Assembly (NCBI GenBank): GCA_964016885.1
Contig: OZ024762.1
Span: forward strand, 14,012,001-14,076,000
Source of the DNA: Eledone cirrhosa
Lineage: Eukaryota
DNA length: 64,000 bases
Reading direction: 5' to 3'
The first letter of the stretch is position 1. Each line of letters starts with the position of its first letter. The notes beneath the pieces are model-generated. The model had not been told where the DNA came from. It made no database searches and was given only the letters and a program-made list of their open reading frames with translations. A program made the position numbers and the translations under genes. Below are positions 34,541 through 57,489 of this stretch, piece after piece.

Positions 34541-34732
34541 AGGAACGAGTAGGACCCCAACGGCTGAGCTCAAGCCGTTTCGACGGCTAATTCAGTCCAG
34601 AATTGCCCGTCGAAACGGCTTGAGCTCAGCCGTCGGTGTCCTACTCGTTCCTATTACCCACTCTACTACCCTAAGTATTGAGTACTTTGGTGCGTTATGG
34701 TCCACCTGGTTCCTTACCATATTTCCTTCGTT
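34541..34732 (+). mobile_element. Short (TA)n-inserted hairpin element with a 3' half hammerhead and an 80-bp tail. Other copies: 35245-35436, 41288-41479, 48279-48415, tail only 39521-39601, arm only 49511-49570, diverged 57233-57375
   Basis: Shared tail tattacccactctactaccctaagtattgagtactttggtgcgttatggtccacctggttccttacca, preceded by GAAAC-GGCT(TGAGCTC)AGCC-GTC and an inverted copy of variable length. Confidence 0.85.
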
Positions 34733-34760
34733 ATATATATATATATATATATACATATAT

Positions 34761-35216
34761 ATGGAAAGTTATATTTAAATTGTTGGGTTAACAACGAGTA
34801 AATATTTATAACTGATATAAAAGCAATCAACAAGTATTTGGAGTATATATATGATATTAAATAAATGGAAACTATATTTATAAAACCATATTTATTTCGT
34901 TATATACATTTCAGGGATATCATATTAACAATATGTTATGCCTTCTTCAGAGAAAATACAATATAAACAGTCTTATAAATAAATAGATACGACATACCTT
35001 TCAATCACCTTGCATTTGGGAGGTTGATTTGGCAGTCAAATCAACCTCCCAAATGCAAGGTGATTGAAAGGTATGTCGTATCTATTTATTTATAGACTGT
35101 TTATATTGTATTTTGTCTGAAGAAGGCATAACATATTGTTAATATGATATCCCTGAAATATATATAACGAAATAAATATGGTTTTATAAATATAGTTTCC
35201 ATTTATTTAATATCAT
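34761..35216. mobile_element. Fold-back element with ~183-bp inverted arms, an HHR in each arm and a ~90-bp unpaired tail
   Basis: Arms 34851-35033 and 35035-35216 are near-perfect reverse complements. HHRs at 34893-34958 (-) and 35109-35174 (+). (TA)n flanks. Confidence 0.85.
35109..35174 (+). ncRNA. Minimal type I hammerhead ribozyme
   Basis: TATTTTGT-CTGAAGA-AGG c ATAACATAT(TGTTA)ATATGATAT c CCT-GAAA-TATATA-TA-ACGAAATA. Confidence 0.75.
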
Positions 35217-36135
35217 ATATATATATATATATATATATATATATAGGAACGAGTAGGACCCCGACGGCTGAGCTCAAGCCGTTTCGACGGCTAATTCTGG
35301 ACTGAATTAGCCGTCGAAACGGCTTGAGCTCAGCCGTCGGTGTCCTACTCGTTCCTATTACCCACTCTACTACCCTAAGTATTGAGTACTTTGGTGCGTT
35401 ATGGTCCACCTGGTTCCTTACCACATTTCCTTCGTTATATATATATAAATATATATATATATATATATATATATATATATATATATATATATGGGATAAC
35501 AAGTTATCGTTATAGGTAATCCAGTTAGAGGTTGTGAATGCTCTGCAACCTCAGGCGATTAGCGAACTCTAGACTCACCTGATCAACGAAACAATTGTCA
35601 GTTATTTAAATAAAGCCTTTATTGTACAGCCAACCATGTTACTCTTCATTCTTTAACTATATATATATATATATATATATATATATATATATATATATAT
35701 AATGTGTGTGTGTGTAAGTTTAGTATATACATATATTTATTTAAGTTTAGTAGTTTACCACTGAATTGAACTGGTCATTCCGTATATTTAATCGTGATGT
35801 AATAGTAGAAAAGTATTCGACGTTAAGCAACTCATCCATCCACCCATCTCTCTCTCTGTATGTGATGGAGCTCGCATTACATAATATTACGACAGAAATA
35901 AATATGTTAATACAACTGTTGTCCTGTTCTCTGCCAAGTCTAAAATAACCCAAGATGTTCTTAAATTCCCTCAGGAGTCTATGGGTCCATACATACTTTT
36001 AAGAAACTCCCCCTATCCTCAGATATTCTGCCATTCTCCCAATTCTGTCAATTATATTATGATTTTTATTCTTTAGTTATCTTTAATTTTTGCAATCAGG
36101 AATATAGTGGATCAGAGGCATTGGTAGAGCGTTGG

Positions 36136-53120: not shown

Positions 53121-53226
53121 ATGATATTAAATAAATGGAAACTATATTTATAAAACCATATTTATTTTATTATATATATTTCAAGGGTACCAAGAAAACA
53201 TTGGTACGCTTTCATGAGATAAAATA
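53121..53226 (-). mobile_element. Truncated member of the same HHR family with a mutated core (CTCATGA)
   Basis: Shares atgatattaaataaatggaaactatatttataaaaccatattta. Minus strand TATTTTAT-CTCATGA-AAG c GTACCAA(TGTTTTC)TTGGTAC c CTT-GAAA-TATATA-TA-ATAAAATA. Confidence 0.75.
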
Positions 53227-56200
53227 CGAAGTTTGTTTGCACTTCTTCTGCTTTTCAAAAGTAGAGTTGAGATAGAGGGTCTGTGCTTTTCATCTTTTTT
53301 TCTCATATATATATATATGTATATATATATGTGTATATATATATATATACATACATAGACATACAACCACACAAACACACATATGTGTAACATTCTCATA
53401 CTTGGGAAATACCAAATTTGAAAGTGAAAGAATTTCAACTAAGTGAATCCAACATGAAACGTCAGGTTGAGTTTTCTTTCAGCTTTATATTTCTGATTTT
53501 TACAAACAACTATAAAAAATTTCACAACAAAAATACCTCATGGACATACACACAGATAGCGGCACACGTGTAATATATATATATATATATGAATTGAAAA
53601 TATAAAATAAGTCTTGTACATACACACACACACACAGATGCAGACACAGGTGTGTGTGTGTGTGTGTGTGTGTGTGTGTGTATATATATATATATATATG
53701 TATATATAAAAATTGAAATTGTAACAAACACACCATGTTAAACCATTACGCATACCTGCACATACATGCGTCTCTTCCCCCTCTTCTTTTCCTCCCTCTC
53801 TCACCCCTCTCCCACCGTACTCTCTCTCTCACCCCTCTCCCACCGTACTCTCTTTCTCACCCCTCTCCCACCGTACTCTCTCTCTCACCCCTCTCCCACC
53901 ATACTCTCTCTTATATATATATATATAATATAACAGGAAGAGAACGAAAATAAACCCCATAAGTACCAGAAAACCTCCCCTATGACACTAAACACTATCA
54001 GCTACACCACGACACCACCACCACCACCACCAAACACCAACAACCGCACCACGACACTACCAAAAGCCACTACCATCAGCCACACCACCACAACCACCAC
54101 TACCAAAAGTCATCAGCCACCAGACAGGCCACCATGACACCAACAGCAACATCATGACACCGCGACCACCCACCGCACCACCAAACACCATCAGCCACAC
54201 CACGCCACCACCACCAGACACCATTAGCCACCAACTACCAACAACCACACCACCACCAGACACCATCAGCCACACCACACTACCACACACCCACACCACA
54301 CCACCACACACCCACACCACACCACCACACACCATCAACCACCAACAGACACATAACCACCACCATCAGCCACACCGCATCACACCACACCACCGCCACC
54401 ATCAGCCACACCACACTACACCACCAAACACCAAGAGACACATCACCACCACCATCAGCCACACCACATCACACCACACCACACCACCACCACCATCAGC
54501 CACACCACACCACACTACACCACCAAACACCAACAGACACACCACCACCAAACGCCAACAGACACACCACACCACCATCAGCCACACCACCACCACCACC
54601 AGACACCACCACCACCACCAGACACCAACAGACACACCACCACCACACGACACCACCACCACGACACCACCACCACCACCAGACACCAACAAAGGCAGTT
54701 TTCTACTAAACTTTTATTCAACATGTATTACATTCAATGTATATTCCAGTAGTGACATGTCCGATGCGATTAGACGTCAACTTAATTTTCATTTACAAAC
54801 CAAATAGGAAAACATATATAGAATATAATATAAATAATAATAATAATAATAATAGTAATAGTAATAATAATGATAGTAGCAGTGGTGGTAGTGGTGGTAG
54901 TGGTAGTAGTAGTAGTTGTAGTGGTAGTAGTAGTGGTGGTAGTAGTGGTAGTAGTTGTGGTGGTGGTAGTAATAGTAGTAGTGGTGGTAGTAGTAGTAGT
55001 AGTGATGATTTCTTTATTAATAACACAGGGTCCACATCAAGAAAAAACATTGACAGTACAGGACGAAAACATAGTGTGTATGCTTGTGTGTGTGTGTGTA
55101 TGCTTGTGTGTGTGTGTGTGTTGGGGTGTGTATGTATGTGTGTGTGTGTGTGTGTATGTTGGGGTGTGTATGTATGTATGTATGTTTGTGTATGTTTGTG
55201 TATGTTCGTGTGTGTCCATGTGTGTGTGTTTGTGTCCATGTGTGTGTATGTTTGTGTCCATGTGTGTGTATGCTTGTGTGTGTGTGTGCGCGCGTTTGTG
55301 TGTTGGGGTGTGTGTGTGTGTGCGCGTTTGTGTGTGTGTGTATGTATGTATGTATGTGTATGTTTGTGTATGTTCGTGTGTGTGTGTATGTTTGTGTCCA
55401 TGTGTGTGTGTTTGTGTGTCCATGTGTGTGTGTTTGTGTCCGTGTGTATGTTTGTGTGTCCATGTGTGTCTGTATTTGTGTCCGTGTGCATGTTCGTGTG
55501 TGTGTGTGTGTGTCTGTATGTTTGTGTATGGGTTTTGCGTGTAAACAAATTTTAAGAATGTTAAAAAAAAGTTAGTTATAAAATTAAAACAAACAAGGTT
55601 CCTTCAATAATAATAATAATAATAATAATAACATTTTTTAATATTAATATTTTTCCTTTCAGTTAGATTTAATGGAAATATAAATATTAATAAGGTTTAT
55701 ATGTAGATGATGATAATGATGCTGATGATGATAAGATGGTGTTTATAATAGTAGTTTTCCATTGGGCACTTTTAGGCAGGTCATAACATGTGGAACCTTA
55801 ATGAGGCAAAATGGCGCATGTTTGTATACACGTATGTATGTATATATGTATGTATACATGTTTGTATACACGTATGTATGTATGTATGTATGTATGTATG
55901 TATGTATGTATGTATACATGTATGCATACATACATGTATGAATGTGTGTATGTATGTATATGTAGGTATCTCTTTCTTTTAATTTCGAATACTTTTTTGA
56001 CTGGCCAACTTCCTGGTGGCAAGATCGTAAAAGAAAAGAAATTGTATGTATGTATGTATGGAGGGTGGTATGTGTGTATGCATGTATATTTGGAGGAATG
56101 TATGTATATATGTATATATGTATGTCTGCATCGGGGAATTTATTTTGTTATATTTATGCATAGTTTATTTTATATTTTTATATTTTCATTGTTAAATTAG

Positions 56201-57489
56201 TCTTGCCATTGTTCACTTTTACTCGACCTTATTGTAAACCCCCACTGTCCCTGTCTTTGTATTGTCCCCTACATGTCGGCCCTTGTGGCGAATAAATGAA
56301 ATCATTATTATTATTATTATTAATGTCAGTCATCACCTGACTAACGTTGCAAGTACCGATTTTTCGTCTAGACATGTTACATGGTTTGCAGTAGAATGTT
56401 GCATGTATATATACAGTGTATATATACAGTATATATATACAGTATATATATATATATATGTGAAGGCGTGTGGCTGAGTGGTTAGAGAGTTGGATTCGCA
56501 ATCGTAAGGTTGTGAGTTCGATTCCTGGACCAGGCGATGCGTTATGTCTTTGAGCAAGAGACTTTATTTCACGTTGCTCCTTCTACCGGGAGTTGCGACC
56601 GATAGATAGTATTAGCAATTGGAAAGACCAACGGAAACATTGTTCCCTCGGTCCGATTTGACGAAGGTCGATCGTTCCTAGATATATATATATGTAGCAT
56701 TTCTGTGGGTAGGAGCTAGAGGAATGAATGTATACATGTATTGGTTACAGTGCTGTGTATATAGTATGTTTGTAGGTGGGATGTGCGAGGTGTAGAGGTT
56801 TCATATCTTAGTGTAGTTTGTAGTAGATATATATTGCATGGTTCTCGTGTAGAATGTTGTATATAGCCGCTATATAAAATTCTACACCAAAAGCATGTCA
56901 TACCTTTATAAGCACACCTGCGACCCGTATAAAGGTTTTTACAGCGCGAGCCTGTTTTATCTTCGTAATATAATATAATTGTTTCTACTTTAGGCACAAG
57001 GCCATCAATTACCCCAGTGTATTACTGGTACTTTATTTTATCGACCCCGTAAGGATGAAAGGCAAAGTTAACCTCGGCGGGATTTGAACTCAGACTGTAA
57101 AGGGACCTAACTCTATGCTGCAAAGCATGGCGTCCGACCCTCTACCGATACTGCCAATCCACCGTCACTTCATTATATCTTCGTAATATAATATAATATA
57201 ATATAATATAATGAAAAAAAATTAGTTGTAATATGCGGCATTAGTTCGGATCTAGCTGTCGAAAACGGTCGGAGCTCAGCCGTCGGGGTCCTGAATCTTT
57301 TCATATTACCCACTCTACTACCCCGAGTATCGAGTACTCTGGTGGGTTATGGACCACCTGGTATTTTTTCACACGCTTTCTGTGACACACACGTGTTTGT
57401 ATATGTATGTATATATATATATATATATAGTTCCCGTGTAAAGGATGGGTTTCAGTGTGTATGATACTGAGAGTGTATATATATATTCC

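Follow-up and report, generated by a model that had tools for sequence, protein, structure and literature searches.

How short palindromes beside (TA)n runs come by their two arms is the question raised by a window of Eledone cirrhosa DNA, the 64,000-nucleotide (nt) stretch at positions 14,012,001–14,076,000 of contig OZ024762.1 (assembly GCA_964016885.1, forward strand). The window holds seven related copies of one element, at 34540, 35244, 39521, 41284, 48277, 49508 and 57241 (Table 1). A reading made from the sequence only had described them as (TA)n-associated hairpin elements, and had ascribed the palindromes to reverse transcription that stalls in a hammerhead ribozyme hairpin, after which the complementary DNA (cDNA) folds back and copies itself. 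All seven copies are present, but only four are hairpins (34540, 35244, 41284 and 48277), each with an 80-nt one-sided tail, and (TA)n adjoins every copy except on the 5' side of 57241. Judged by motifs and anatomy, these mini-insertions derive from a Hydra-clade Penelope-like element (PLE) of which they are the cut-off ends, and they number in the tens of thousands. We consider it probable that their arms are two cDNAs that were primed at a cut (TA)n target, both reached one and the same 5' end of the RNA (a capped start, in all probability) and were end-joined; our confidence is higher for the two cDNAs and lower for the capped start. Searching the 3.0-Gb genome for a 33-nt stretch of the tail gave 22,942 exact matches, and its variant from one subfamily a further 5,410, the reversed control giving 0 in each case. 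Positions in the element are numbered from +1, which is window position 34594, where the tail-bearing arm begins.

A parent of the copies is directly observed. Among the first 30 tail matches, four continue upstream uninverted, three of them into an open reading frame (ORF), and a protein search returned numerous open frames of around 784 codons, some of which lie head to tail in arrays. One array consists of 3,543-bp head-to-tail units with an intact ORF of 717 amino acids (aa), its ATG at +232. The 717-aa protein carries YRDD at 348 and YIG at 606, motifs that point to a reverse transcriptase (RT) followed by a C-terminal GIY-YIG-type endonuclease, together with RWR at 37, DKT at 117, CNCPDRSIC at 572 (a CxCx5C linker), CNLC at 670 (CxxC) and CKH at 698 (CxH); no CX2-5CxxC motif occurs in it. 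Section 11 of PMC8557442 gives RWR/RWK-like, DKT, CxCx5C, CxxC and CxH motifs, without CX2-5CxxC, as marks of the Hydra clade. The anatomy of tandem units or pseudo-long terminal repeats (pLTRs), an inverted truncated 5' copy, a one-sided tail and a (TA)n target is also that of the clade, with a tail of 80 nt where 30–40 nt is expected. By these motifs and this anatomy, rather than by an RT tree, the parent is assigned as a Hydra-clade PLE. Pfam and PDB sequence searches with the ORF returned no match, and a single-sequence structure model was unusable, with a predicted local distance difference test score (pLDDT) of 32. Identity as Naiad or Neptune was ruled out by the domain order and the linker motif. 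Elsewhere in the genome, arrays of three to five intact, near-identical 3.5-kb units in head-to-tail order (L185–L186, L187 and L194) were seen, so the family is very young.

The PLE origin proposed by the sequence-only reading is borne out by colinear ORF-bearing parents. Its statement that the copies are not MITEs (miniature inverted-repeat transposable elements) was likewise upheld: a MITE or other DNA transposon with terminal inverted repeats (TIRs) was rejected, as the 80-nt tail lies outside the palindrome, the centre varies from copy to copy, no TIR is fixed at both ends and the copies are colinear with a retroelement. A non-LTR retrozyme (LTR, long terminal repeat) was also rejected, since the mini-insertions have no hammerhead 5' half and the tandem unit is a 3.5-kb coding element.

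Arm ends were mapped in a young sample (the first 90 of 100 listed among the 5,410 matches, against the subfamily's own parents) and in an older sample of mixed composition (90 copies, the first among the 22,942 matches). Ungapped mapping of the older sample halts early at substitutions, owing to which arm lengths and junctions were counted in the young sample; gapped mapping over-extends by a few bases. The 3' sites are fixed. In the young sample, 83/90 copies end at +141 (site B) and 65/90 are inverted, with the tail-less arm starting at +60 (site A) in 65/65; sites A and B are 80 nt apart, and each ends in TAT, matching the target. At the other end the arms meet a wall that sits in loop II of the parent's ribozyme, 231 nt before the ATG. 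Stops at −4 to +7 account for 51/90 young tail arms, with none at −80 to −5 and 8 arms long, and for 50/65 young tail-less arms; both ends lie in this interval in 40/65 inverted copies, one end in 12, and both lie further 3' in 12. In the mixed older sample, 53/90 tail arms stop at −10 to +8, 3 at −49 to −11 and 8 are long (window copy 49508 also extends to about −29), and the older lineage stops at the same motif as the young one. Long insertions keep the site A arm, with very unequal arm lengths (125 versus ∼1,570 nt in L152). The inversion centres are non-random, as had been claimed, and each insertion builds its own junction, which differs copy by copy.

These junctions bear on whether the hairpin is a fixed non-autonomous unit, similar to a MITE or a short interspersed nuclear element (SINE), that is copied whole and has its tips eroded later. 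The very high copy number and near-constant length would suit such a unit, as would at least 29 copies with one and the same arm asymmetry, which hint that some hairpin loci act as sources. We nevertheless regard it as improbable: the junctions vary copy by copy and carry inserts, kb-long copies that bear the ORF have the same site A arm, the tail is on either arm or missing, and there is no TIR at both ends.

Arm length does not depend on the tail. Among the 65 young inverted copies the tail-less arm is longer in 25, the tail arm in 24 and the two are equal in 16; the tail-less arm is in excess by at least 3 nt in 20 copies and by at least 10 nt in 10. If a cDNA started at the tail end folds back, the tail-less arm that it yields cannot extend beyond the tail arm, and the longer tail-less arms speak against this. 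The junctions are poor in homology or filled with inserts: 23 have an insertion, 20 no overlap, 19 an overlap of 1–2 nt and 3 an overlap of at least 3 nt (one of them a stem III join), so that 62/65 fall below 3 nt. Most of the inserts of at least 5 nt (n = 12) are copied from nearby element sequence. These counts argue for two end-joined cDNAs and against self-priming of one cDNA.

The fold-back of a stalled cDNA has several observations on its side. Self-priming has been proposed for PLE palindromes (part of PMC3846280), stem III overlaps do occur (48277, L045, L131 and L325), 41284 contains a local loop inversion and the arms share variants, being identical over +43 to +60 in 22/41 copies where 5.7 are expected on shuffling, most others differing by one base. 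In all four stem III joins, however, loop III has the orientation of the tail-less arm and belongs to it, so a second cDNA is needed and stem III is an annealing point. The shared variants fit two copies from one RNA or from one source locus; the earlier reading had called them copy-specific, but they are subfamily variants found in long parents (of the L034 and L190 types). Nor are the arms mirrored throughout: in 34540 and 35244 position +44 is G on the tail-less side and T on the tail side. The same asymmetry was scored in 29 copies of L001–L030, a set chosen for likeness to 35244, with differing junctions; it could mean two templates from one source locus, and a systematic difference of this kind speaks against fold-back. 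Together with the arm lengths, the scarcity of overlaps and the control family described below, these points leave self-priming in ribozyme stems largely refuted, and we give it very little probability.

Three further observations concern the arms. A 4-nt loop of an alternative hairpin (+12 to +27) is inverted locally in one arm at 41284–41340 and in L031 and L147, a sign of occasional hairpin-driven template switching. L041 and L106 have 13–16 untemplated A residues at a cDNA 3' end inside the junction, which suggests terminal-transferase activity. A parvovirus-like flip-flop of the central loop was considered and rejected; the two forms reflect merely which arm reaches +1.

A second family in the window serves as a control (Table 1). 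At 12 of 30 loci of this family 2 (a count that omits two long copies whose alignment merely stops there), the end lies 75–88 nt upstream of the ribozyme core, at a YCACT motif, and one locus has a Hydra-like frame (39% identity) where the inverted arm would be. Its wall lies ∼85 nt outside its ribozyme; the centre of a palindrome therefore needs no ribozyme stem.

The ribozyme itself is found in the parent. As had been stated, none of the seven copies contains CUGANGA. The search that the sequence-only reading advised, for this core directly upstream (within 30 nt), gave 40 matches genome-wide, of which 30 were inspected and proved to be sequence of junctions or flanks; it fails although a ribozyme exists, because the parental core is of the U3–A8 type, UUGANAA. 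A CUGANGA search thus misses the ribozyme of a very abundant family. In the parent, stem I is followed by the UUGANAA core, stem II with a loop II of ∼35–40 nt, GAAA, stem III and GUC at +39 to +41. The predicted fold has the type I topology, with three stems, the 3–8 pair, G10.1–C11.1, GAAA and an NUH site. Among 99 parental occurrences of the core, a figure that counts overlapping loci more than once, 86 are UUGANAA, 5 CUGAGAA, 8 other and 0 CUGANGA. The U3–A8 pair is present in most parents, and one subfamily has a C3–A8 mismatch (L037, L109, L141, L157 and L173); its core is predicted to be inactive, yet it has been amplified. In 27 parents drawn from two lineages, pairing holds in 91.7% of cells, and two-sided changes are seen in 5/21 pairs, two of them between the lineages in stem II; position 7 varies freely. 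The parent is thereby assigned a complete predicted type I hammerhead with a U3–A8 core.

The parental fold also clarifies the anatomy of the mini-insertions. The hammerhead 3' half recognized in them is real, since the parent carries the full fold, and 41284 has a substitution in the GAAA box. What had been taken for stem II, on the other hand, is the inverted arm paired with its own mirror image; the 5' strand of the true stem II lies 30–40 nt further upstream, in the parent. The centres assigned to the stem II loop in 34540, 35244 and 41284 do fall within the large loop II of the parent (+1 to +7), and that of 48277 is indeed on stem III, as a 6-nt overlap of two stem III strands. The predicted cleavage site is at +42, and both arms end there, with inserts between them, in 3/65 young copies. 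The count corresponds to 3 of 14 arms ending beyond +7 (P ∼0.004); two tail-less arms end at +41 in one mapping and at +42 when mapped to true parents only. The three copies may be an indirect sign that the predicted ribozyme can cleave itself.

The base at +1 falls on a TCAGT/TTAGT (TYAGTY) motif that resembles the initiator (Inr) consensus and that two lineages have retained while the rest of their loop II diverged. In the parts of the papers concerned, Penelope is described as having an internal promoter with an Inr (PMC2377424), an Inr is noted in pLTRs (PMC3846280) and the copying of a capped RNA end leaves an extra G (PMC11702581). An extra G precedes 15/27 young arms that end at +1, a position at which T or C stands in the parents; in L040, L339 and L346 both arms show it. 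When only bases not attributable to the other arm are counted, G precedes 10/15 ends at +1 and 17/47 elsewhere (Fisher p 0.04). A splice acceptor was rejected as the origin of the wall, there being no peak of arm starts after either AG (10 at +3 and 4 at +8, compared with 67 non-long arms at +1, 34 at +2 and 29 at +7).

A variant of the two-cDNA scheme in which the wall is a structural stop for the RT, or a nuclease cut, in a sub-helix of loop II seems unlikely to us, though less so than the fixed unit. For it count that +1 is a bulge in the predicted sub-helix of the young lineage, that in the older one a possible sub-hairpin is 3–4 nt away from it and that the G before arm ends is not specific to +1. 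Against it, the enzyme gets past the stronger stems III and II first, the sub-helix is not conserved between the lineages while the initiator-like motif is, and family 2 halts ∼85 nt outside its ribozyme at a similar motif.

The reading that we prefer, of two cDNAs running off one RNA end, would proceed as follows. A tandem array would be transcribed from +1 in loop II through the ORF into the next unit, giving a transcript that would carry sites A and B twice. The enzyme would cut (TA)n, each target strand would prime a cDNA at site A or B, and both cDNAs would run off the same, probably capped, 5' end; end-joining would then link the two ends head to head, some trimming and templated insertion taking place on the way. 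Initiation at the cap-proximal sites would reach run-off within 60–140 nt and yield the hairpins with tails, about nine in ten copies, and initiation at the distal sites would yield the long inverted copies, about one in ten. A start within loop II would leave the 5' ribozyme copy incomplete, so that only the 3' copy could cut, and its 3' product would account for the small number of copies in which +42 is the end of both arms. Only now and then would a ribozyme stem play a part, by letting the two cDNAs anneal.

Several points weigh against this scheme or parts of it. The capped start at +1 is deduced from DNA copies, the wall spans 11 nt within or next to a weak sub-helix of loop II, where a structural stop is possible, and in the older sample G precedes only 4/14 arms ending at +1. 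Among pooled free ends G precedes 15/45 at +1 and 22/49 at +2 to +8 and is not +1-specific; the pattern fits scattered starts or untemplated addition equally well. For the hammerhead, the covariation amounts to about two events or lineages, not 28, the fold is no more stable than shuffled sequences (z 0.22), an Rfam search of the parent region gave no hammerhead match and no +42/+42 copy was seen in the mixed older sample. Later nibbling of hairpin tips could blur the arm lengths, and both samples were drawn from the start of one contig.

A more specific version may be offered as a possibility that we hold tentatively: the mini-insertions would be strong-stop fossils in which the capped start in loop II disarms the 5' ribozyme and only the 3' copy can cut, the enzyme would act as a dimer that copies from both target strands to the RNA 5' end, and some hairpin loci might fire outwards from their centre and seed further mini-insertions, which would explain the fixed arm asymmetry at +44. 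Their junctions would then map, at base resolution, both the promoter and in vivo cleavage by the U3–A8 hammerhead.

Table 1. Copies of the element, of family 2 and of other repeats in the window.
Feature	Position	Strand	Remarks
Mini-insertion	34540..34734	+	Inverted tail-less arm (+60 to +7) at 34540–34593; tail-bearing arm from +1 at 34594; 80-nt tail 34653–34734; (TA)n on both sides
Mini-insertion	35244..35438	+	Tail-less arm to +1 (35244–35303), the longer arm; tail arm from +7 (35304)
Tail only (+59 to +141)	39521..39603	+	Flanked by (TA)n runs
Mini-insertion, other subfamily	41284..41481	+	Tail arm begins at +1, tail-less arm extends to +5; GAAA box substituted; micro-inverted 4-nt loop in left arm
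Short mini-insertion	48277..48417	+	Joined through 6-nt complementarity of stem III; loop III in tail-less orientation
Single tail-less arm	49508..49602	−	Spans ∼−29 (loop II) to site A; unpaired, without a second arm
Uninverted copy, older lineage, with tail	57241..57375	+	Begins ∼2 nt before +1
Family 2, tail and 190-nt-arm palindrome	34732..35223	−	Canonical CUGANGA in each arm; centre ∼85 nt upstream
Family 2, 174-nt-arm palindrome and tail	42082..42547	+	Canonical core at 42332
Family 2 sequence	53123–53226		Canonical CUGANGA minimal hammerhead
Palindromes beside or centred on (TA)n	37255–37620, 45435–45506, 45810–45879, 48735–48931		Probably ends of other families
Dispersed SINE-like repeat	1494–1664 and ∼15 more places (e.g. 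12843–13425, 57146–56975)		∼170–190 nt
Tandem repeat	60718–61936		Period ∼118–124 nt; 95–98% identical
Young tandem	5555–6532		467-nt unit, 2.1 copies, 99.8% identical; (TA)n not directly flanking; canonical type I hammerhead in each unit (5713–5784, 6180–6251)

The young tandem in Table 1 looks like a non-LTR retrozyme. Its hammerheads, which match Rfam HH9 at 37.7 bits, below the gathering score, are the only Rfam hammerhead matches in the window.

The element class and clade, the target, the tail signature, the inverted 5' copy and the U3–A8 core are already known. A wall at the start site in PLE mini-hairpins, a count-based test against PLE self-priming and copies ending at the cleavage site were not found in the literature searched, which held few subscription journals and Repbase entries. 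For the head-to-head inverted ends of PLEs, the part of PMC3846280 concerned proposes self-priming, and two-site, two-strand priming has been seen in vitro (PMC11167929), where the joining step was not included. Tens of thousands of very short copies of one young family with an intact parent provide a countable test, and its outcome is in favour of two cDNAs that were joined once they had run off. Should the wall be a capped start, mini-hairpin junctions could map PLE promoters from the genome alone, and the +42 copies would testify, at the level of the genome, to in vivo cutting by a PLE hammerhead.

The statements that follow on PMC8557442, PMC11702581, PMC4209133, PMC3846280 and Craig et al. 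refer to parts of those sources. The Hydra clade (PMC8557442) shares with the parent RWR, DKT, CxCx5C and the CxxC and CxH motifs around the endonuclease, as well as a (TA)n target, a hammerhead near the 3' end, an inverted 5'-truncated copy and a one-sided tail. The unit is 3.5 kb here versus mostly <3 kb among the Hydra elements listed, and the tail exceeds the clade's 30–40 nt. Hydra hammerheads in file S2 of PMC8557442 are all CUGANGA with a short loop II, whereas UUGANAA and a long loop II are found here, and the parent's motif differs from that of Hydra-1_oBim; Craig et al. describe CUGANGA as a universal feature of Hydra elements, though the clade is not founded on it. Neither a wall nor a mini-hairpin class is among the features described for the clade in that part of PMC8557442.

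The Cercyon PLE hammerheads (PMC4209133) resemble that of the parent in being type I, in a terminal repeat, with U3–A8, a long helix II and G10.1–C11.1; they are without helix III, whereas the helix III of 5–6 bp here could allow folding as a monomer. The pLTRs of Adineta Penelope elements (PMC3846280) have similar head-to-head palindromic junctions, an optional tail and an Inr-like motif. Those junctions were read as self-priming on an antisense template, whereas the counts here argue for two cDNAs. In twin priming of L1 (PMC11702581), too, the other target strand primes a second cDNA to give an inverted 5' part, and full-length junctions have little homology and an extra G; the L1 arms copy non-overlapping parts of the RNA, whereas here the same stretch is copied twice and a palindrome results.

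A biochemical parallel is PAc, the Poseidon element of Anolis, for which both strands are extended in vitro and two internal initiation sites bound the tail (PMC11167929). As here, the two sites lie downstream of the hammerhead and the target is AT-rich. The PAc sites are inside the ORF, whereas those of the present element are in the 5' untranslated region, and no PAc reads ended at the cleavage site, whereas three copies do so here. Unlike in the PAc system, the joining of the cDNAs is recorded here in thousands of junctions.

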